DNA of 64,000 nt from Thermoanaerobaculia bacterium (GTDB lineage: Bacteria > Acidobacteriota > Thermoanaerobaculia > UBA5066): positions 2,126 to 66,125 of the forward strand of contig JBBQRP010000021.1 in assembly GCA_038214715.1 (NCBI GenBank), written 5' to 3'. A program made the position numbers and the translations under genes. Below, one piece after another: positions 52,244-62,453 of this stretch. The first letter of the stretch is position 1; the number at the start of each line of letters is the position of its first letter. The notes under the pieces were generated by a model. The model was not told where the DNA came from. It was given only the letters and a program-made list of their open reading frames with translations, and made no database searches.

Positions 52244-52582
52244 ATGCACGTGGAAGTCCGCAAGTCGAAAGACGTCGTGATCGTCGATCTCTCCGGGAAG
52301 CTCCTCGCCGGGATTGGCGACGAGATCCTCCGGAGCGTGGTCAACGAGCTCCTCGCCGAGGGGTGGAAGAAGATCCTCCTGAACCTGTCCGACGTGTCGG
52401 CCATCGACAGCGCGGGCACGGGCGAGCTCGTGGCGAGCCTGAAGATCAGCGAACGATTCGGTGCGAGCCTCAAGCTCTTGAACCTCCACGAGCGCGTGCG
52501 CAAGAGCCTGCATCTCTCGCAGCTCCTTCCGGTCTTCGAGGTGTTCGACGAGGAGACCGTGGCCCTCCAGCACTACGCGTAG
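52244..52582 (+). CDS. STAS-domain anti-sigma factor antagonist
   Basis: LNLSDVSAIDSAGTGELV; ATG 52244. Confidence 0.9.
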   Translation: MHVEVRKSKDVVIVDLSGKLLAGIGDEILRSVVNELLAEGWKKILLNLSDVSAIDSAGTGELVASLKISERFGASLKLLNLHERVRKSLHLSQLLPVFEVFDEETVALQHYA

Positions 52583-52621
52583 GGCCGCCCGAGTTCTCGA
52601 CACTACGCTGAGGGAGGACTC

Positions 52622-52869
52622 ATGGTCCCGTTGCTCATCGCAGCGGCGCTCGCCGCGGCCCCGTGGCCGCGCGTCGCGCTGACCCGCGTCGCCGCCGGCT
52701 TCTCGAGCCCCACACAGGTGACCTCCGCGCACGACGGCTCGGGCCGCCTCTTCGGCCCCCGCGGGAAAACTTTCGACCCTTCCTCGTCTACGGCATCGTG
52801 AACGACGGCGCTTCGCCGGGCGAGGGCACGGGCGACGGGAGCTATCTCGGAATGAGCGGCGTGAAGTAG
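52622..52869 (+). pseudogene. Ghost of a secreted PQQ-dependent sugar dehydrogenase-type gene (5' and 3' ends only)
   Basis: RBS GGAGG and ATG 52622: MVPLLIAAALAAAPWPRVALTRVAAGFSSPTQVTSAHDGSGRLF, stop at 52801. Another frame ends PFLVYGIVNDGASPGEGTGDGSYLGMSGVK*. Confidence 0.65.
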
Positions 52870-52911
52870 CCGCGAAACCTCGCGGGGCCCGGAAGCGTAG
52901 ACTTCTGTGCC

Positions 52912-53241
52912 ATGAGTGGCCGTGTCGTCCGTGTCGCCCTCCTCGTCCTGCTGGCACCACTGGCGCTGGGCGGAGCGTTCGGACACGTCGACGGCGTCGA
53001 GCTTCTCTCCCAGGGCACCCAGCTCTTTGCGCCGGACCATCCGGCGCACGCGCCATTCGTTCCGCAGGCCGAGCACGCATGCGCGGCCTGCGCCGTCTCC
53101 AACCTGACGCCCCCCGCGTCCACACCCGTTTTCCTCACGCCGCCCGCCGTGGCCTCGATCCTCGAGGCGCGCGTCGAGCGGCGGGTCCACGCGCCTGCTC
53201 TCCCGGAGCTTCCCGGCCGATCCCCTCCCGCGATCGCGTAA
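52912..53241 (+). CDS. DUF2946-like (CruR/CutF-like) leader protein with signal peptide, CxxC and C-terminal RSPP
   Basis: Hydrophobic N-terminus, His-rich segment, HACAAC, Pro-rich linker, GRSPPAIA*; directly upstream of a metal RND operon. Confidence 0.8.
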   Translation: MSGRVVRVALLVLLAPLALGGAFGHVDGVELLSQGTQLFAPDHPAHAPFVPQAEHACAACAVSNLTPPASTPVFLTPPAVASILEARVERRVHAPALPELPGRSPPAIA

Positions 53242-53306
53242 CCGTTCACACGCGTCGCCCGCCGCGGAAAGGCGTTTCGCCTTCCGCTTCGAGAACTCAG
53301 GGAGGG
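53223..53306 (+). promoter_or_regulatory. Putative translational attenuator: anti-SD CCCTCCC, SD GGGAGGG and an internal hairpin
   Basis: CCCTCCC at 53223-53229 is complementary to GGGAGGG at 53300-53306; hairpin GCGGAAAGGCG-TTT-CGCCTTCCGC at 53264-53287. Confidence 0.55.
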
Positions 53307-53313
53307 TTCAGTC

Positions 53314-54591
53314 GTGAGCATTCGAAATCCGGCGTGGAAGGCTTTGGTCTTCCTGCCACCGCTCATTTTCGCGGCGGCTCCGGCGGGTGGAGAGGAGCTG
53401 CTGCGCCTCACGAGGGAGCAGTCGATCCAGGAGGCCTTTGCCCGCAATCCCGCATTGCTCGCCGCGCGGGAGCAGGTGGAACAGGCCCGCGCGCAGGTGG
53501 TCGTCGCCGGCGCGTTTCCGGACCCCACGTTTTCGGCCGACATCGCGGGCGAAACCCATCCGTTCAATCCGGCGTCGGGCGCGGGCAGCGACCAGGGACT
53601 CGGCGTGACCGTTCCCTTTCCAGGGAAGATCGGAATGCGGCGGGCCGTCGCCCGGTCGGCGGTCAGCGCGGCCGAGTTCAACCTGATTCAGCTGCGTCAG
53701 CAGGTGGCCTCGCAGGCGGCGCAGGCGTACGACGCGCTTCTCGTGGCTCTTCGGCACCGCGTGGACCTTCTCAAGAGCAAGGAGTTCGCTTCGGACTTCC
53801 TCGACAAGACGCAGGCGCGATTCCTGGGGGGAACGGTCGCGAAGGTGGATGTCCTGAAGGCGCACGTGGACGTTTCGCAGGCGGAGAACGACCTCATCGC
53901 GAACGAGCGGGCGACCGCCACGGCGCGCGCTTCGTTGAACCGCCTCCTCGGTCGCCTGGGCGGTGCGTTTCTGGAACCGACCGACAGCCTCGAGATCCCG
54001 GACGCCCTGCCCTCCCTGGAAACGCTCGAGCAGCTCGCGGAGGCTTCGCGACCGGAGCTCAAGAGCCTCCTCGCCCAGGTCCAGGGGGCGAAGGTCGCGA
54101 CCCGGCTCGCGAAGAAATACTGGGCACCGGACGTCAGTTTCAGCCTGGATCGCAACAACGTCGACGGCATCCCGTCCTCCTTCACGAGCGGAATCTCTTT
54201 CTCCTTTCCGCTCCTCTTCTGGCAGCACGAGAAGGGCGAGGTTGCCGCGGCCCGGCACCGCGAAGCGGAGCTCGCCGCGAACATCAAGGACAACCGGGCC
54301 CAGGTGAGCCTCGACGTGCACAGCGCCTTCGCGAGCGCCTCGACCGCGCTTCGCCAGGCGATCTTCATCCGCGACGAGCTCCTTCCGGAAGCGCAGGACG
54401 TCTATCGCATCGCGGCGGCGAGCTACGGCCTGGGGGGCTCTTCGGCCCTCGACTTCCTCGACGCCAAACGGACCCTGGTCGACGCTGAACGGCAATACGT
54501 CGACGCACTCGGGGCGGCGAACGACGCGGAAGCGGCACTCGAGCTCGCGACCGGAGCTCCACTTCCCAGGAAATCAGGAGACCATTCATGA
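53314..54591 (+). CDS. TolC/CzcC-like outer membrane efflux protein
   Basis: Signal peptide, A.ARNPAL.AAR, FPDPT, Y.LG..S.LDFLDA.R repeats. Confidence 0.9.
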   Translation: MSIRNPAWKALVFLPPLIFAAAPAGGEELLRLTREQSIQEAFARNPALLAAREQVEQARAQVVVAGAFPDPTFSADIAGETHPFNPASGAGSDQGLGVTVPFPGKIGMRRAVARSAVSAAEFNLIQLRQQVASQAAQAYDALLVALRHRVDLLKSKEFASDFLDKTQARFLGGTVAKVDVLKAHVDVSQAENDLIANERATATARASLNRLLGRLGGAFLEPTDSLEIPDALPSLETLEQLAEASRPELKSLLAQVQGAKVATRLAKKYWAPDVSFSLDRNNVDGIPSSFTSGISFSFPLLFWQHEKGEVAAARHREAELAANIKDNRAQVSLDVHSAFASASTALRQAIFIRDELLPEAQDVYRIAAASYGLGGSSALDFLDAKRTLVDAERQYVDALGAANDAEAALELATGAPLPRKSGDHS

Positions 54592-55730
54592 AGCAGCGTG
54601 GCCATCTGAACCCGCGCTCCCCGGGCGCAATCTTCTCCGCTATCGGGCTCGCTCTTCTCACGGCCGCATGTCATCGCGAGGCAGCGGGAGGCGCGGGCGA
54701 GCCGAACACGAAGGTCCCCGCGCTCCGCGACGTACGCACCGAGAAGGTCGCCATCTCGTCTTTCCGGCGGAGCATCGAGACGACGGGAACCGTGGCGTTC
54801 GACCAGAACCGCTCGACCGCGGTGCTGTCGCCCATCTCGGGGCCCGTCACCCGGGTTCTCGTCGAGATCGGCGCGCAGGTGAAGGCGGGCGATCCGCTCG
54901 CCATCGTCCTCTCGCCCGACTTCGCCTCCGCGATGAGCGGACTGCGCAAGGCCGAGGCCACCGCGCGCCACGCCGAACGCATCGCGGACCTCGACCGACA
55001 GCTCTTCAAGAACGACGCGATCTCCCGGCGGGACCTCGAACAGGCCGACACGGACGCCGTGGGCGCGGCCGCAGACCGGGATTCCGCTGTCCAGCAGCTG
55101 CGGAGCATCGGTGTCGACGAGAAGACTCTCGACGAGATCCGGCAGAACCATCCGGTCGCGACTCCCGGCGGGATCATCCGCGCGCCGCTGACCGGCACTG
55201 TGGTCGAGAAGCTCATCTCGCCCGGTCAGCTCTTGCAGGCGGGCACGACCCCGTGCTTCACCGTCGCCGATCTCTCCGCGGTGTGGGTCATGGCGAGCGT
55301 GTTCGAAGCGGATCTTCCGTTCGTCAGGATCGGCGACCCCGCCGAGGTGAGGACGAGCGCCTCGCTCGCGCCGCTGCCGGGAAGGGTCGGCAACATCGCC
55401 GCCCTCGTGGATCCGGCGACGCGTGCGGTCGCCGTGCGCCTCGAGGTGCCGAACGCGGGAAGGGTCCTGAAGAGGGACCTCTACGTACGCGTGTCGATCC
55501 GCTCGCGAACCGAGAGCCGCGGCGTCATGGTTCCCGTTTCGGCCGTCCTGCGCGACGAGGACAACCTTCCCTACGTGTTTACCGCGGCCTCGGACGGCAC
55601 GTTCGCGCGCCACACGGTTCAGATCGGGGCACGGGTCGGTGAGAGCCAGGAGATTACGTCGGGCCTCTCCGCGGGCGATTCGGTCGTCGTCGAGGGAGGG
55701 CTCTTCCTGTCGACGGCGGAGCACTCGTGA
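54588..55730 (+). CDS. RND periplasmic adaptor (CzcB/CusB-like), lipoprotein
   Basis: LTAAC lipobox, SPISGPV, IRAPLTGTV, VADLSAVWV, VDPATR. Confidence 0.9.
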   Translation: MKQRGHLNPRSPGAIFSAIGLALLTAACHREAAGGAGEPNTKVPALRDVRTEKVAISSFRRSIETTGTVAFDQNRSTAVLSPISGPVTRVLVEIGAQVKAGDPLAIVLSPDFASAMSGLRKAEATARHAERIADLDRQLFKNDAISRRDLEQADTDAVGAAADRDSAVQQLRSIGVDEKTLDEIRQNHPVATPGGIIRAPLTGTVVEKLISPGQLLQAGTTPCFTVADLSAVWVMASVFEADLPFVRIGDPAEVRTSASLAPLPGRVGNIAALVDPATRAVAVRLEVPNAGRVLKRDLYVRVSIRSRTESRGVMVPVSAVLRDEDNLPYVFTAASDGTFARHTVQIGARVGESQEITSGLSAGDSVVVEGGLFLSTAEHS

Positions 55731-58700
55731 GCGACTCCGGGTCGGCTCCGCCGCCGGAGATCCGGGAACGGACGGCGACGTCTTTGATCAACGGCGTCGT
55801 GGCGGCCGCCCTCCGCCAGCGATTCGTCTGCGCGTTCCTCTTCGTCCTCCTCGCCGCGGTCGGCGTCGCCTCGTTCCGCCGCCTTCCCGTGGACGCCTAC
55901 CCCGATCTCTCCCCTCCGCAGGTGGAGGTGATTACCCAGTGGGGGGGGCGCGCCGCGGAGGAGGTCGAGCGCCTCATCACGGTCCCGATCGAGGTCGAGA
56001 TGAACGGCGTGCCGAACGTGACGGTCGTCCGCTCGATCTCGCTCTACGGACTCTCGGCCGTTCGCCTGACCTTCGAGAACGGAACCGACAGCTACTTCGC
56101 GCGGCAGCAGGTCTTCGAGCGCCTGCCCGGCGCCTCGCTGCCGGCCGGCGTCACGCCATCCATCGCCCCGCTCTTCTCTCCCTCGGGCCTCATCTACCGC
56201 TACGTGCTCGAGAGTCCCGACCGCTCTCCGATGGAGCTGAAGACGCTGGAAGACTGGGTGGTCGAACGGCAGTACAAAGCGGTGCCTGGCGTCGCGGACG
56301 ACTCGGGCCTCGGCGGCCCCACGATGCAGTACCAGGTTCTTCTCGATCCGGCGAGGGTCGCCGCCGTCGGCCTCTCGGTTCCGCTCGTCGTCGCGTCGCT
56401 CGGCGCCAACAACAGCAACTCGGGCGGGGGCTTCTACTCCCAGGGGGGCCAGTTTTATTACGTCCGGGGGCTGGGCCGTCTCACGACGACCGAGGACATC
56501 GGCAACGTCGTCGTGTCCGTCCACAACGGCACGCCGGTCCTCGTGAAGGACGTCGGCCAGGTCGTCATCGGCGAGGCGCCGCGCCTTGGCCAGTTCGGGT
56601 TCAACGAGCGCGACGAGGCGGTGGAGGGCGTGATCCTCATGCGTCGCGGGGAGCAGGCCCAGGTCGTTCTCGACCGCCTCGAGAAGAAGACGAAGGAGCT
56701 GAACGACTCGATCCTGCCCAAGGACGTCAAGATCCGCCCCTTCTACGATCGGCGGGACCTCATCGAGCTCACGACCGGGACCGTGGAGGAGAACCTGCTC
56801 CGCGGGATGGTGCTCGTCATCGTGGTCCTCGTGTTCTTCCTCTACGACTTCCGCTCCGGCCTCATCGTCGCCATCACGATCCCGCTGTCGCTCCTCTTCG
56901 CGTTCATCTGTCTCGACCTCAAGCACGTGCCCGCCAACCTCCTTTCGATCGGAGCGATCGACTTCGGAATCCTCGTGGACGCGAGCGTCGTCATGGTCGA
57001 GAACGTGTTCCGGCGGATGGCACTGAACGGGGAGGAAGGGAACCGCCTGAGCGTCTCCGAGGTCATCCTGCAGGCGGCGGCCGAGGTGGACCGGCCCATC
57101 TTCTACGCCGTGGCCGTGATCATCGCCGCGTTCCTGCCCATCTACGCGCTCGCGGGTCCGTCGGGCGCGCTCTTCCGTCCGATGGCCGACACGACGATCT
57201 TCGCCCTCGTCGGCGCGCTCGTGGTGGCGCTCACGCTGGTACCCGTGCTGTGCGCCTGGGCCCTCCGGAAGGGTGTGAAGGAGCGGCGGAACGTCGTGTT
57301 CGAGAAGACGCGCGACCTCTACGGGCGCGGTCTCGACAAGTGCCTCGCCCATCCGTGGCGGACGACGATCGCGAGCGTGTTCCTCCTCGCGCTTTCGCTC
57401 CTTCTCGTGCCGGGAATCGGTGCCGAGTTCATGCCCCATCTGGACGAGGGAGCGCTGTGGATCCGCGCCACGATGCCCTCGACGATCTCCTTCGAGGAGG
57501 CCGCGAAGATCTCGCCCCAGGTCCGATCGATCCTGCGGTCCTTTTCCGAGGTCACGGTCGTGGGCTCGGAGCTCGGGCGGCCGGACGACGGCACGGATCC
57601 CACGGGCTTCTTCAACGACGAGTTCTTCGTCGGCTTGAAACCGTACCGGGACTGGAACGGGAAGTACCGTGACAAGAAGGCTCTCGTCGCGGCGATCGAC
57701 GAGAAGCTGAAGGCCTTCCCCGGAATCGTCTTCAACTTCACGCAGCCTGCCGAGGACGCCGTCGACGAGGCCGAGACCGGCCTCAAGAGCGCCCTCGCGG
57801 TCAAGGTCTTCGGGCCGGACCTGTCGATCCTGGAATCCCGCGCGAACGCGATCAAGAGCGTGCTCGCGAAGGTCCGCGGAATCGGCGAAGTGTCCGTCGT
57901 GCGGCAGCTCGGGCAGCCGAGCCTCACGGTGACGATCGATCGCGCGAAGATCGCCCGCTACGGCCTGAACGTGGCCGACATCAACGGCCTCGTCGAGGCA
58001 GCGGTAGGCGGCACGGTCGCAACCCAGGTCGTGCAGGGAGAGAGGCTTTTCGACCTCGTCGTGCGGCTCAGACCGGAGTTTCGGCAGACCCCGGCCGCCA
58101 TCGGCAATATCCTCGTGGCCACGCCGGGCGGCCAGCAAGTGCCCCTGCGGGAGCTGGCCGACGTCCGCGTGGTCAGCGGCGCATCTTTCGTCTATCGCGA
58201 GAACAACTCCCGGTACATCGGCGTCCAGTACTCGGTCAAGGGCCGCGATCTCGCCGGCGCCGTCGAGGACGCAGAGCGTGAGGTGTCCCGGGCGGTGTCC
58301 GTTCCGACGGGATACCGCATCGTCTGGGGTGGCGAATACGAGAACTACACCGCGTCGAAGAAGCAGCTCCAGGTAATCCTGCCCGTGACGCTGCTCGTGA
58401 TCTTCATGCTGCTCTTCATGCTCTATTCGAACTTCAAGTTTCCGGTGATCACGGTCGCCGCGGTCCTTCTTTCGGCGCCGATCGGTGGGCTCCTCGCGCT
58501 CAAGCTCTCCGGGACGCCCTTCTCGGTCTCGTCGGGCATCGGTTTCATCGCGCTCTTCGGCGTCTCCGTCCAGACGGCCGTGATATTCATCTCCTATGCG
58601 AACGAGCTTCGAAAGAAGGGGATGGGAATCCTGGAGGCGACGCGTGAGGCCGCAATCCTCCGCCTTCGCCCCATCATGATGACCGGCCTCGTGGCCGCGT

Positions 58701-58867
58701 TCGGCCTCCTTCCGGCGGCGCTGTCGACCGGAATCGGATCCGACACGCAGCGTCCGTTCGCCCTCGTGATCGTGGGAGGTCTTTTTTCGCGCCTCCTCGT
58801 CAGCGTCTTCCTGATGCCCGCGTTGTACGTGATCGTCGCCGGTCCGAACGACCGGCTGGAGGTCTGA
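55727..58867 (+). CDS. czcA: CzcA/CusA-family heavy-metal RND efflux permease
   Basis: LPVDAYPD, EEVERLIT, GAIDFGILVDASVVMVEN, RLRPIMMT, QRPFA.VIVGG. Confidence 0.93.
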   Translation: MSDSGSAPPPEIRERTATSLINGVVAAALRQRFVCAFLFVLLAAVGVASFRRLPVDAYPDLSPPQVEVITQWGGRAAEEVERLITVPIEVEMNGVPNVTVVRSISLYGLSAVRLTFENGTDSYFARQQVFERLPGASLPAGVTPSIAPLFSPSGLIYRYVLESPDRSPMELKTLEDWVVERQYKAVPGVADDSGLGGPTMQYQVLLDPARVAAVGLSVPLVVASLGANNSNSGGGFYSQGGQFYYVRGLGRLTTTEDIGNVVVSVHNGTPVLVKDVGQVVIGEAPRLGQFGFNERDEAVEGVILMRRGEQAQVVLDRLEKKTKELNDSILPKDVKIRPFYDRRDLIELTTGTVEENLLRGMVLVIVVLVFFLYDFRSGLIVAITIPLSLLFAFICLDLKHVPANLLSIGAIDFGILVDASVVMVENVFRRMALNGEEGNRLSVSEVILQAAAEVDRPIFYAVAVIIAAFLPIYALAGPSGALFRPMADTTIFALVGALVVALTLVPVLCAWALRKGVKERRNVVFEKTRDLYGRGLDKCLAHPWRTTIASVFLLALSLLLVPGIGAEFMPHLDEGALWIRATMPSTISFEEAAKISPQVRSILRSFSEVTVVGSELGRPDDGTDPTGFFNDEFFVGLKPYRDWNGKYRDKKALVAAIDEKLKAFPGIVFNFTQPAEDAVDEAETGLKSALAVKVFGPDLSILESRANAIKSVLAKVRGIGEVSVVRQLGQPSLTVTIDRAKIARYGLNVADINGLVEAAVGGTVATQVVQGERLFDLVVRLRPEFRQTPAAIGNILVATPGGQQVPLRELADVRVVSGASFVYRENNSRYIGVQYSVKGRDLAGAVEDAEREVSRAVSVPTGYRIVWGGEYENYTASKKQLQVILPVTLLVIFMLLFMLYSNFKFPVITVAAVLLSAPIGGLLALKLSGTPFSVSSGIGFIALFGVSVQTAVIFISYANELRKKGMGILEATREAAILRLRPIMMTGLVAAFGLLPAALSTGIGSDTQRPFALVIVGGLFSRLLVSVFLMPALYVIVAGPNDRLEV

Positions 58868-60834: not shown

Positions 60835-60843
60835 CTATTGAGC

Positions 60844-61467
60844 GTGGGCGCTGCCATCTCAGCCTTGGAGGAAAGCCTGGAAGCACCCGCGACGAACCCG
60901 GACCATGAAGCGGATCTCGAAGCGATGGAACAGGTTCGCCGGGGAGAAGCCGCCGGAGCGACCTGGCTTTTCCAGCGTTACTCGGCACCTCTCCTGAGGT
61001 TCACGGGGCGCCTTTTGGGAAGCCGGGCCGAGGCCGAGGAAGTCACGCAGGACGTCTTTCTCAAGCTCATGTCGCGGGCTGACCAGTACGACGGGCGCGC
61101 CCCCGTCGGCTCCTGGCTGTTCGCGATCGCCACGAACGCATGCCGGGACCGGCTGCGCCGCTCGGTCCGTCGGCCCAGCGTCGCTCTCGATTCGGTGGCC
61201 GAGACGGCCGAGCCCGGGATCCCGGTGGACGAGCGTCTCGCCGACCGCCAGCGCCGCGAGGCCGTCCGCCGGGCGCTCGCTCACCTGTCCGAAGAGCAAC
61301 GCGAGGCCCTCATCCTCGCGCGTTATCACGGGATGCCTTACGCCGATATCGCGCGAACGCTGAAGATCAGCGAAGGCGCCGTCAAGACACGGATCTTCCG
61401 GGCCATGGAAACGCTCAAGGCCCATTTCTCCGCAGGAGACTCACCATGGATTGCCGCAACGCACTGA
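60844..61467 (+). CDS. ECF sigma factor (sigma-70 group 4)
   Basis: AEEVTQDVF, WLFAIATNACRD, LSEEQREAL, YADIA..L.ISEGAVKTRIFRA. Start is GTG 60844 or TTG 60838. Confidence 0.93.
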   Translation: MGAAISALEESLEAPATNPDHEADLEAMEQVRRGEAAGATWLFQRYSAPLLRFTGRLLGSRAEAEEVTQDVFLKLMSRADQYDGRAPVGSWLFAIATNACRDRLRRSVRRPSVALDSVAETAEPGIPVDERLADRQRREAVRRALAHLSEEQREALILARYHGMPYADIARTLKISEGAVKTRIFRAMETLKAHFSAGDSPWIAATH

Positions 61468-62453
61468 ACGTTCGTGACCTGATTCTCGACCGCCTCGCCG
61501 GGACACCGATCGCGGAGGCGGACGCGTCGTTCCTCGAGGAGCACCTCGCGTCCTGCGAGGCCTGCCAGGCCGAAGAAGGCGGGATGAAGTCCGTCTGGTC
61601 CCGCCTCGGCGAGGACGACGGTGCGGACCTTTCCCTTTCACCCGCGTTCGTATCCCGGGTGACCGCGGCGATCGCGTCCCGCGGCAACGGAACGCTGCTC
61701 GCCTTTCCCGCCGCGAGCTCCCGGGGAAACTTCCTGAAGGCAGCCGCGGTCGTCCTGGCGGGAGGCCTCGGCTTCCTCGTGGCGCGGGGCACCGAGCGTC
61801 CCGCTTCGCTCACCGCCGCGACCGCCCTGCCCACGCCGAACATGAAGTTCGGCGAGAACGTCGCCCTCGTCTCGAACCGGACCGTGGACGCGTCCCGCGC
61901 GGCGCTCGACCTGTCGGACAAGCCCCGTCTCGCGAACGTCTCCTACCGCGCCTCGGAAGAGGCGGGCAAGATCGCGGTGTCGTTCGACGTGACGACGCGC
62001 TACACGGTCGTGGGACGGCCCGAGGACAAGAGCGTGGCCGACCTCCTCGTCTCGCTCATGTCCGGCGCCGCGGAGACGGAGGGCGCGAAGGGAAGGGTGC
62101 TCGACTTCGTCTCCGCGACCACGAAAGACGGCGCCGCTGTCTCGCCGGAGATCGTCGGCCTCCTCCGCCGAACGCTCGAGACGGACAAGAACCCCGGCGT
62201 GAGAAAGAAGGCCGCGGAAGCCCTCACCCAGATGCCGCCGACGCCGGAGATTCGCGACGCATTCGCGAAGGCGCTGAAGGTCGACTCGAATCCCGCGGTG
62301 CGGATCCTGGCGGTCGAAGGGCTCGCGAAGGCCGCGTCCGTCCTGAAGGATCCGCTCACGATCGAGACGCTGCGCCAGAAGGCGGGAGACGACCACGAGA
62401 ACGGCTACGTGCGCAGCCAGGCCGCGCTCGCCCTGAAGCGGATCGAGATCTGA
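61446..62453 (+). CDS. Membrane anti-sigma factor: zinc-binding (HxxxCxxC) domain, TM, extracytoplasmic HEAT repeats
   Basis: ATG 61446 MDC; HLASCEAC; TM AAAVVLAGGLGFLVA; repeats D.NP.VR..A.E.L. Confidence 0.85.
   Translation: MDCRNALNVRDLILDRLAGTPIAEADASFLEEHLASCEACQAEEGGMKSVWSRLGEDDGADLSLSPAFVSRVTAAIASRGNGTLLAFPAASSRGNFLKAAAVVLAGGLGFLVARGTERPASLTAATALPTPNMKFGENVALVSNRTVDASRAALDLSDKPRLANVSYRASEEAGKIAVSFDVTTRYTVVGRPEDKSVADLLVSLMSGAAETEGAKGRVLDFVSATTKDGAAVSPEIVGLLRRTLETDKNPGVRKKAAEALTQMPPTPEIRDAFAKALKVDSNPAVRILAVEGLAKAASVLKDPLTIETLRQKAGDDHENGYVRSQAALALKRIEI

Follow-up and report, generated by a model that had tools for sequence, protein, structure and literature searches.

A small conserved gene heads a heavy-metal efflux operon

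Within a 64,000-nucleotide (nt) stretch of a Thermoanaerobaculia (Acidobacteriota) genome (GenBank assembly GCA_038214715.1, contig JBBQRP010000021.1, forward-strand positions 2,126 to 66,125; hereafter the window, whose own numbering is used throughout), we analyzed a 109-amino-acid (aa) open reading frame (ORF), the leader, that lies directly upstream of a three-gene operon for an outer-membrane efflux protein (OEP), a periplasmic membrane-fusion adaptor (MFP) and a heavy-metal efflux permease of the resistance-nodulation-division type (HME-RND). An earlier note on this DNA had read the ORF as a metal-sensing arrest peptide that carries, in its stall codons, an anti-Shine-Dalgarno (anti-SD) sequence for the OEP gene. 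The elements from which that reading was built are all present: the 109-aa ORF with its signal-peptide-like start, HACAAC and a GRSPPAIA end (52912-53241), the sequence CCCTCCC within the S-P-P codons (53223-53229), a Shine-Dalgarno (SD) sequence GGGAGGG (53300-53306) and a GC hairpin between them (53264-53287). The features of the leader and the operon, all on the plus strand, are the following.

52912-53241 (+): leader ORF, a small, putatively exported CxxC...GRSPP protein of 109 aa, from a conserved family of ~109-110 aa
52912-52983 (+): signal-peptide-like N-terminus, aa 1-24, basic and hydrophobic, ending in LGGAFG before the invariant His25 (from inspection, helix 4-20 and the invariant G20/G21/F23/H25)
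52984-53091 (+): putative metal-ligand region with H25, D42, H43, H46, H55 and C57-A-A-C60 (from conservation)
53015-53260 (+): C>G bubble, C minus G of 10-27% in 78-nt windows, reaching from the leader's 3' two-thirds into the beginning of the spacer (from composition)
53200-53214 (+): Leu-Pro codons with two more CU-rich motifs resembling an anti-SD, CTCCC (53200-04) and CTTCCC (53209-14) (from RNAalifold)
53218-53229 (+): candidate R-S-P-P arrest-motif codons CGA TCC CCT CCC, with R, P and P invariant
53223-53229 (+): CCCTCCC, exact complement of the downstream SD and candidate anti-SD (from P105 codon bias and the tail:SD duplex)
53230-53241 (+): tail codons A-I-A and TAA stop, after RSPP
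53264-53287 (+): intergenic hairpin GCGGAAAGGCG-UUU-CGCCUUCCGC, with an SD-like 5' arm, an anti-SD-like 3' arm and no U-tract (from the fold)
53300-53316 (+): SD GGGAGGG (53300-06) and, 7 nt further on, the GTG start (53314-16) of the OEP gene
53314-54591 (+): outer-membrane efflux protein, TolC/CzcC-like, 425 aa (Pfam OEP, 7.5e-60)
54588-55730 (+): periplasmic adaptor (MFP), 380 aa (HlyD_D23, 3.5e-45; TIGR01730, 158 bits against a cut-off of 94.9)
55727-58867 (+): CusA/CzcA-family heavy-metal RND permease, 1046 aa (TIGR00914, 890.2 bits against a cut-off of 701.45)

Translation of 52912-53241 gives MSGRVVRVALLVLLAPLALGGAFG, then HVDG...FAPDHPAHAPFVPQAEHACAACA...PGRSPPAIA and the stop, with EHACAACA between HVDG and PGRSPPAIA. 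The CxxC codons occupy 53080-53091, and the codons of the C-terminal motif are CGA for R103 (53218-20), TCC for S104, CCT for P105 (53224-26) and CCC for P106 (53227-29). The ORF is coding-like, with GC contents of 0.81, 0.55 and 0.81 at the three codon positions and a frame shared with the OEP gene. Scans of Pfam and NCBIfam returned no match to it at E<=1, and an AF2 model with a mean pLDDT of 53.3 predicts two helices and nothing else, the signal helix (4-20) and a short one at 58-63. Inspection of the N-terminus, this first helix and the invariance of the residues around its end together suggest that the product is exported.

The leader family is narrow and its motif spacing is rigid

A word-indexed protein search returned 260 candidates, 194 of which are leader homologues at E<=0.01. 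Among the 120 homologues listed, lengths range from 98-132 aa and identities from 61-85%, and every named source is a metagenome-assembled genome from Thermoanaerobaculia or Acidobacteriota. An exhaustive HMMER search of 1.84 billion cluster representatives found just nine at E<=0.001, one of them spurious, and the family is therefore narrow. The spurious one, P0128 (1563 aa, 10 repeats), was rejected as a member, its match being a chance one to a Cys/Thr-rich repeat. In 401 genomes sampled from the class, the family is present in 21, comprising all 18 from the window's genus and members of two further genera of the same taxonomic family, and it was found in none of the other 22 families sampled.

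From genome and metagenome contigs we gathered 124 loci, of which 114 fit the leader pattern and 79 were unique after merging of identical 180-nt keys; all 79 are from Thermoanaerobaculia/Acidobacteriota. The ten left out were L001, which is unrelated, and L022, L029-31, L051, L060, L065, L103 and L106, which are partial, degenerate or cut. Codon alignments hold 78 of the unique loci, one being too short, and folding of the SD region used 71, eight having been dropped for want of an assigned start or for a mis-assigned 473-nt spacer.

Conservation is concentrated on the putative ligands and on the C-terminal motif. H25, D42, H43, H46, C57, C60, R103, P105 and P106 are invariant in 26 aligned members, as are G20, G21 and F23, and H55 is conserved in at least 90% of these sequences; residues 79-97 vary freely. 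The CxxC motif occurs in 79 of 79 unique loci, and C..C and R[S/A]PP are kept in distant members of 37-46% identity. The distance from CxxC to RxPP is 42 residues in 78 loci and 41 in the remaining one, and RxPP is followed by a tail of three, four or five residues in 29, 30 and 20 loci, respectively. The motif reads GRSPP in 62 loci, ARAPP in 10, ARSPP in four, SRSPP in two and DRSPP in one, which places Ser at the second position of RxPP in 69 of 79 and Ala in 10. With 194 homologues and invariant ligand and motif residues, the leader is a real, constrained gene.

The same leader precedes three types of outer-membrane gene

In the window, the OEP gene begins 72 nt downstream of the leader on the same strand, and the OEP, adaptor and permease genes follow one another with successive 4-nt overlaps. 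A permease above its curated cut-off, joined in one operon by an adaptor and an OEP, identifies an HME-RND locus, and this permease is encoded at one of only two loci in the genome that exceed the TIGR00914 cut-off. In its fourth-helix region it carries DFG...DAS...VEN, a pattern that we tentatively take to be that of a divalent-cation HME subgroup.

Throughout the family, the leader lies immediately upstream of the next gene and on the same strand. That gene encodes a barrel-like protein of ~360-380 aa in 41 of the 79 loci, a TonB-dependent receptor with CarboxypepD_reg and Plug domains in 26 and an OEP in five, and it is unclassifiable or too short in seven; in the three OEP loci with enough sequence, an orthologous adaptor follows. 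Because one family stands before three unrelated types of outer-membrane gene, it behaves like a leader and not like a pump subunit. An alignment of 16 loci revealed that the leader end, the spacer and the first ~11 downstream codons form a single conserved block, in OEP and non-OEP contexts alike. The sharing of this block between OEP genes and genes for the barrel-like protein makes the leader-spacer-start unit resemble a portable cassette.

Several observations on the downstream genes may be set beside this. Nucleotide conservation, viewed in the window at 53300-53345 and in the aligned loci at columns 125-170, begins at the SD and extends over some 11 codons of the gene (V/M-S-I-R-N-x-A-W-K), whether that gene is for an OEP or for the barrel-like protein. 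The latter, the commonest 3' gene (L004:1892-2986, L003:1904-3043 and 39 other loci), has a signal peptide, a conserved NVFNPN(I/M)SVIGN start and a C-terminal GAHGAHPF; it gave no Pfam or NCBIfam match, and a role as an outer-membrane barrel in metal traffic is possible. Spacers of the TonB-receptor class (for example L028, L085, L102 and L115) are GC-rich and contain a conserved, partly palindromic, AT-rich GATTTCTTAGAAGGTGAAT-like word 20-40 nt past the leader stop. This word might bind a protein, serve as a promoter or act at the RNA level.

Synonymous codon choice preserves CCUCC at the end of the leader

To judge codon choice at the motif we took as baseline 1060 long, confidently coding ORFs of the genome, in which CCT makes up 7.0% of Pro codons and TCT 4.8% of Ser codons. 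Against this 7.0%, the first Pro codon of RxPP (P105) is CCT in 58 of 79 loci. The bias is specific to the position, as the fraction of third-position T at P105 is 0.73 in the 78-locus alignment versus 0.01-0.14 at nine other conserved Pro columns. In 63 of 79 loci, CCTCC is found within the stretch that runs from the Arg codon to the stop, where synonymous recoding with this genome's codon usage predicts 10.4, and in five of the 21 loci in which P105 is not CCT the neighbouring codons provide CCTCC instead. Synonymous sites at the end of the leader are thus under selection for CCUCC, and the CCTCC excess, together with the bias at P105, supports the idea that an anti-SD is written into the stall codons. 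In the class of loci with ARAPP and a TonB-dependent receptor, CCT and CCC alternate opposite an intergenic GGGGGG element, and RNAalifold predicts a four-element switch in which the tail pairs with the G-run and an anti-SD arm pairs with the SD.

RNA folding of the window agrees with the earlier note's prediction that the S-P-P codons sequester the SD. In the minimum free energy (MFE) fold of 53195-53335, CCCCUCCC pairs with GGGAGGG around the hairpin. The energy of this fold is -58.3 kcal/mol (z = -2.21), and six of 200 shuffled sequences fold at least as well. The SD has an unpaired probability of 0.00 in the free RNA, with 0.99 of its pairing directed to the 3' end of the leader, and this probability rises to 0.43 once the footprint of a stalled ribosome is removed. 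The tail:SD duplex is worth -17.5 kcal/mol, whereas synonymous recodes average -11.3 and match the native pairing in a fraction of 0.005. Over 71 loci, the mean unpaired probability of the SD is 0.06 in the free RNA and 0.25 in the stalled state, and the SD pairs mainly with the leader end in 32 of them. Sixteen loci retain the intergenic hairpin; 89% of its cells are paired, and two of nine pairs are compensatory. On the window alone, the case against chance is modest, as the stretch is rich in GC and in Pro; across the relatives, with their CCTCC excess, it is clear.

A second leader with RGPP heads the other efflux operon of the genome

The genome's only other HME-RND operon (OEP-adaptor-CusA/CzcA, L135:1629-7185, minus strand) is also headed by an exported-type ORF, one of 117 aa at contig C4:71746-72093 (minus strand), equivalent to L135:7244-7594 (minus strand). 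This second leader is unrelated to the leader in the window and has no Cys. At its C-terminus an invariant RGPP is followed by 3-4 residues (five in the copy of the window's genome), and R, P and P are invariant among 71 homologues. Ten loci were assembled for this second family; two fell outside the pattern and three had no usable SD, through start mis-assignment or a missing next gene, which leaves five informative ones.

The stall and tail codons of the second leader hold perfect SD complements of 6-8 nt. In the window's genome, the stall codons CCUCCGG face CCGGAGG of the SD region. The SD variant GAAGGAGC is accompanied by the tail GCUCCUUC in two loci, and the SD GAGGAG by tails holding CUCCUC or UCUCCU in three. 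That the tail changes with the SD variant, in a compensatory manner, raises the odds that tail:SD pairing is genuine in this lineage. CCT encodes the first Pro in just two of eight loci of the second family, which argues against a codon-specific requirement for stalling.

The leader resembles CruR and CutF outside the DUF2946 family

CruR of Bordetella pertussis (Bp2923), a DUF2946 protein, has an export signal, CxxC and RAPP three residues before the stop, with 45 +/- 1-2 residues between CxxC and RAPP (PMC9426467). It stalls the ribosome and acts through Rho, its Rho utilization (rut) site being a C>G bubble that extends from the upstream ORF (uORF) into the spacer (PMC9426467), and its arrest was demonstrated in vitro with two Pro codons in the P and A sites (PMC12992588). 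Like CruR as described there, the leader has an export-type signal, CxxC, RxPP near the stop, rigid spacing, a product predicted to be unstructured and a C>G bubble, and relatives precede TonB-dependent receptors. The fixed spacing of 42 residues and the tail of 3-5 residues mirror the 45 +/- 1-2 residues and three-residue tail reported for CruR (PMC9426467). In the same sources, CruR differs from the leader in that it passes the DUF2946 model, has a spacing of 45 rather than 42 residues, uses RAPP where the leader family mostly has RSPP, and has a 162-nt spacer; copper relieves its stalling and thereby turns an uptake gene off.

CutF of Rhodobacter capsulatus is described as having a Sec signal, a CxxxC motif and a PPP motif, with the anti-SD in an intergenic stem-loop (PMC9973294; 10.1101/2025.02.05.636593). 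The leader shares with CutF-like proteins, as these papers present them, a length below 150 aa, a Cys motif, a Pro motif within the last 15 residues and a metal gene directly downstream, and it shares with CutF the proposal that stalling exposes an SD otherwise shielded by mRNA structure. By the operational definition of CutF-like proteins (Ozturk et al. 2023), the leader qualifies, with 109 aa, PP at 105-106, an OEP gene 72 nt downstream and a signal recognized by inspection. Unlike CutF, with its CxxxC and PPP, it has CxxC and RSPP, and its best candidate anti-SD overlaps the stall codons. CzcI of Cupriavidus metallidurans, which is small, lies directly upstream of czcCBA, falls among the CutF-like clusters and has been suggested to be a metal-sensing regulator (PMC9973294), is alike in size and in its place upstream of an HME-RND operon but reportedly has no C-terminal proline motif; this comparison is by description only.

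The C-terminal R-x-P-P core within a small, secretory-type protein is shared with ApdA and ApdP (and, as RAGP, with SecM), although those arrest peptides monitor Sec/YidC. The variant RSPP had been put forward as a stall motif, and published work is in line with this: RSPP permits arrest in ApdA and ApdP, emerged from random arrest screens and is under-represented in proteomes, Ser being partially permissive at position 2 of RxPP (PMC12992588). Proteomes are described as strongly avoiding RxPP in general, small exported proteins with the motif close to the C-terminus being the exception (PMC12992588).

The earlier note had placed the leader with the DUF2946 uORFs, and in this respect it has to be corrected. 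Against the Pfam model (DUF2946, PF11162), the leader scores E=3 and 9 bits, with a cut-off of 23.7, aligning aa 17-106 to profile positions 28-117. Of 26 family members, seven match the DUF2946 model at E<=10 (best 0.049), a whole-genome DUF2946 scan had no match at the leader locus, and hhalign against nine Acidobacteriota DUF2946 proteins gave a probability of 5.2%, through the signal peptide only. With the profile score below the cut-off and an hhalign probability of 5.2%, we rejected DUF2946 membership. One neighbouring cluster set in the ESM Atlas has 13% DUF2946 members, which we treat as a lead only. What stands of the proposed CruR/CutF type is the signal, the CxxC with its His/Asp ligands, RxPP at 3-5 codons before the stop and the fixed spacing.

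In true DUF2946 genes of other Acidobacteriota (L126, L128, L130 and L133), the R(G/A)PP codons are also CCT CCT or CCT CCG, and two of these loci, L126 and L128, have a tail, CCUCCUUCUUUCCUU, that could pair with GGAAGGAA, an SD-like run before the next gene. Judging by these sequences, tail:SD pairing may extend more widely than the leader family.

A proposed model for control of the pump by ribosome stalling

We consider it likely that the leader is a cis-acting arrest leader. Counting in favour of this are the ten loci with canonical ARAPP and the arrest-permissive RSPP of the others, and also the AF2 model, in which the absence of a fold beyond the signal and a short helix matches what has been reported for the poorly structured CruR. 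The fuller proposal, that the 109-aa ORF is an exported, metal-sensing leader peptide of the CutF/CruR type that acts in cis at the head of an OEP-MFP-HME-RND operon and works as a whole by occlusion of the SD, is one that we favour on balance. That the anti-SD at work is supplied by the 3' codons of the leader itself is a tentative view, to which we give not quite even chances.

In this proposal, the N-terminal part of the leader, with the mature N-terminal His, the DHPxH motif and CxxC, would thread out via the Sec translocon during translation. The ribosome would then pause at R-S-P-P, its P and A sites occupied by the first and the second Pro codon, respectively, and would cover the pyrimidine-rich last codons, CCCUCCC included. 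Taking the geometry from the CruR toeprint as reported (PMC12992588), the footprint with P105 in the P site would reach roughly to the stop codon. In the free mRNA, the last leader codons are predicted to pair with the GGGAGGG SD of the OEP gene around the hairpin. During a pause, only the hairpin would stay folded, the SD would be exposed and the pump would be translated; if there is no long pause, the ribosome would terminate, the anti-SD:SD helix would re-form and the pump would be off. By analogy with CutF, the pause should last longer when the exported ligands bind metal, as would suit an efflux pump. What the sequences show is the anatomy, the conservation, the selection on synonymous sites for CCUCC and the predicted fold; we infer the stalling, the export, the metal that is sensed, the sign of the response and the choice of SD occlusion over Rho as the coupling.

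Several results weigh against this proposal, and most of them concern the partner of the SD. The SD is invariant in alignable relatives, GGGAGG being unchanged in 16 aligned loci, so that covariation cannot support a specific tail:SD helix; the covariation of anti-SD and SD that the earlier note had looked to is absent from the leader family. In two locus classes, RNAalifold prefers as SD partner the CUYCC of the upstream Leu-Pro codons, and in 16 related loci it pairs the first CU-rich Leu-Pro motif (53200-04) with the SD; the Leu column just 5' of the CU-rich motif is CTC or CTT and never CTG in 78 sequences. Both helices are similarly compatible with the alignment, with 87.5% of cells paired for the tail and 95% for the upstream Leu-Pro codons, and in the ARAPP class the tail pairs with the intergenic G-run instead of the SD. 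Synonymous recodes of R-S-P-P keep the SD paired, with a mean unpaired probability of 0.09 versus 0.06 for the native codons. Since the recodes also sequester the SD, thermodynamics alone has no preference for the native codons, and sequestration is no specific evidence. The tail:SD duplex beats 95% of recodes in just 16 of 71 loci (3.6 expected), and T-ending codons are also enriched at Arg (29%), at Ser (TCT in 37 of 69) and at the second Pro (47%), none of which CCUCC pairing alone would need. The claim of an anti-SD in the S-P-P codons thus keeps its basis in codon choice, which preserves CCUCC, and in the sequestered SD, and loses its uniqueness, the upstream CUYCC fitting equally.

Other points of this kind concern the setting of the leader. 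The 79 loci are close kin, and their counts are not independent events, so that independence is overstated. The pump is a minority context, found in five of 72 classifiable loci, and one sign of metal response would be odd for a family that stands before both a pump and TonB-dependent receptors. In 26 of 69 related loci, a large PQQ-sugar-dehydrogenase-like gene (>819 aa in L037), of which the window keeps a remnant, is intact and stops 30-42 nt short of the leader. The leader thus does not head every such gene series, and the arrangement in the window is a rearranged one. Finally, the C>G bubble over 53015-53260 is like that of the CruR rut region.

This bubble lends itself to the explanation that the leader and its RSPP stall are as proposed and that coupling to the pump is by Rho-dependent termination, as in Bordetella CruR, with the C-rich, G-poor 3' part of the leader as rut, where a stalled ribosome would block Rho, and with the CU-rich codons serving Rho loading instead of SD pairing. 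We regard this as unlikely, if worth keeping in mind. It accords with a family mean C>G of 18.7% over the last 150 nt of the leader, where pump genes have 1.4% (sd 8.5), with the mapping of the cruR rut to a like bubble from the uORF into the spacer in the published account (PMC9426467), with G-avoiding codons at Ser, both Pro and Leu, with a terminator scan that found no intrinsic terminator, and with the TonB-dependent receptors, the target class of CruR, that follow 26 of 79 leaders. Avoidance of G alone, however, predicts CCC over CCT (36% versus 7% genome-wide), and P105 is CCT in 58 loci and CCC in nine. Moreover, the spacer is short, at 57-131 nt versus 162 nt in cruR, and contains a stable hairpin and an invariant, strong SD flanked by complements, and the native codons beat recodes in pairing with the SD region while trailing them for the rest of the spacer. 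Rho coupling and SD occlusion could coexist. The rarity of CCT, too, might by itself account for the codon at P105, and the T-ending codons at Arg, Ser and the second Pro fit such a reading; it is weakened by the non-CCT loci that supply CCTCC nearby and by CruR, whose RAPP is reported to be written in frequent codons (PMC9426467), so that rare codons are no general need of arrest of this kind.

More improbable still is that the product of the ORF is a stable, trans-acting protein that binds metal in the periplasm, a CzcI- or CusF-like accessory or chaperone in which RSPP and CCUCC are structural or incidental. The exported part is indeed strongly conserved, with His/Asp/Cys ligands and, just past the probable point of cleavage, an invariant His, and CzcI, upstream of czcCBA, is discussed in PMC9973294 as a metal-sensing regulator without a Pro motif. 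Yet the AF2 model shows nothing folded apart from the signal helix and another, short helix (mean pLDDT 53.3), and a free linker (79-97), a spacing fixed at 42 and RxPP at 3-5 codons before the stop better fit a constraint on the distance to the peptidyl-transferase centre. Selection on synonymous sites at the motif, the reported avoidance of RxPP in proteomes save at the C-termini of small exported proteins (PMC12992588) and the invariable placement of the gene immediately upstream on the same strand likewise speak for a leader. We give very little credence to the idea that the complementarity of S-P-P and SD merely follows from having Pro codons and a strong SD where the genome is GC-rich, with an unrelated hypothetical ORF of no regulatory role. 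The modest fold of the window (z = -2.2, six of 200 shuffles as good) and the recoded variants that still sequester the SD would agree with it, but CCTCC is present in 63 of 79 tails versus 10.4 expected, the codon bias is position-specific, the motif spacing is invariant, the module is common to three gene contexts, and a parallel RGPP leader sits on the second pump operon.

What the leader would add

With moderate confidence, we place the leader, from its sequence, among arrest-peptide-type metal leaders of the CutF/CruR kind, in a new lineage; both the principle and its connection with RND pumps have been published before. In the survey of Ozturk et al. 2023 (PMC9973294), CutF-like genes neighbour OEP/RND genes most often and TonB-like genes second most often, and CzcI is named there as lying upstream of czcCBA, so that the new target class announced by the earlier note does not hold. 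The word "Acidobacteria" does not occur in the main text of that paper, and the supplementary lists of PMC9973294 and PMC9426467 may include Acidobacteriota or the leader family. In the main text of Fujiwara et al. 2025 (PMC12992588), the RxPP census covers RAPP and RGPP only, and the word "efflux" is absent.

The gain would therefore be one of breadth and mechanistic detail, not of a new concept. If the proposal is true, metal-sensing arrest leaders extend to Acidobacteriota, here in a little-studied lineage of soil and sediment, through a family missed by current domain models, and censuses by DUF2946 or by RAPP/RGPP alone undercount such leaders. The leader would be a compact natural design in which arrest codons double as anti-SD. 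Both HME-RND pumps of the genome (two of two above the TIGR00914 cut-off) would be under such leaders, which would suggest a lineage-wide preference for translational over transcriptional metal control. Its occurrence before efflux and uptake-type genes would make the family a good system in which to ask how the sign of a metal response is set. A still broader picture, which we hold to be doubtful, is that exported RxPP arrest peptides, rather than two-component or MerR regulators, are the standard outer-membrane metal switch in this genus, with the anti-SD written by synonymous choice into the stall and tail codons, where a stalled ribosome would mask it directly, with a portable cassette (leader end, hairpin, SD and first ~11 codons) placed on three gene classes, and with a second, unrelated RGPP leader that reached the same design by convergence at the other HME-RND pump.

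Genes and signals flanking the leader operon

Scans for sigma-70 promoters and for intrinsic terminators returned 0 sites each, and an Rfam scan of 52500-53450 returned 0 matches at E<=1. On the 5' side, a GH3 enzyme and a DAP-decarboxylase-like gene (minus strand) and a STAS protein come before the leader operon, and on the 3' side an LD-carboxypeptidase and an O-methyltransferase follow it. No two-component, MerR or ArsR gene is adjacent among the flanking genes. The remark in the earlier note that no metal regulator is adjacent thus holds for these neighbours (STAS, a gene remnant, LD-carboxypeptidase and O-methyltransferase). Farther on, at 60838-62453 (plus strand) and thus some 2 kb downstream of the pump, lie genes for an ECF sigma factor and for an anti-sigma factor with zf-HC2 and HEAT repeats. 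Between the STAS gene and the leader, at 52622-52869 (plus strand), lies the remnant of a large, secreted, PQQ-sugar-dehydrogenase-like gene, which retains a signal-peptide/N-terminal piece and the last ~34 codons (ending ...YGIVNDGASPGEGTGDGSYLGMSGVK and the stop).

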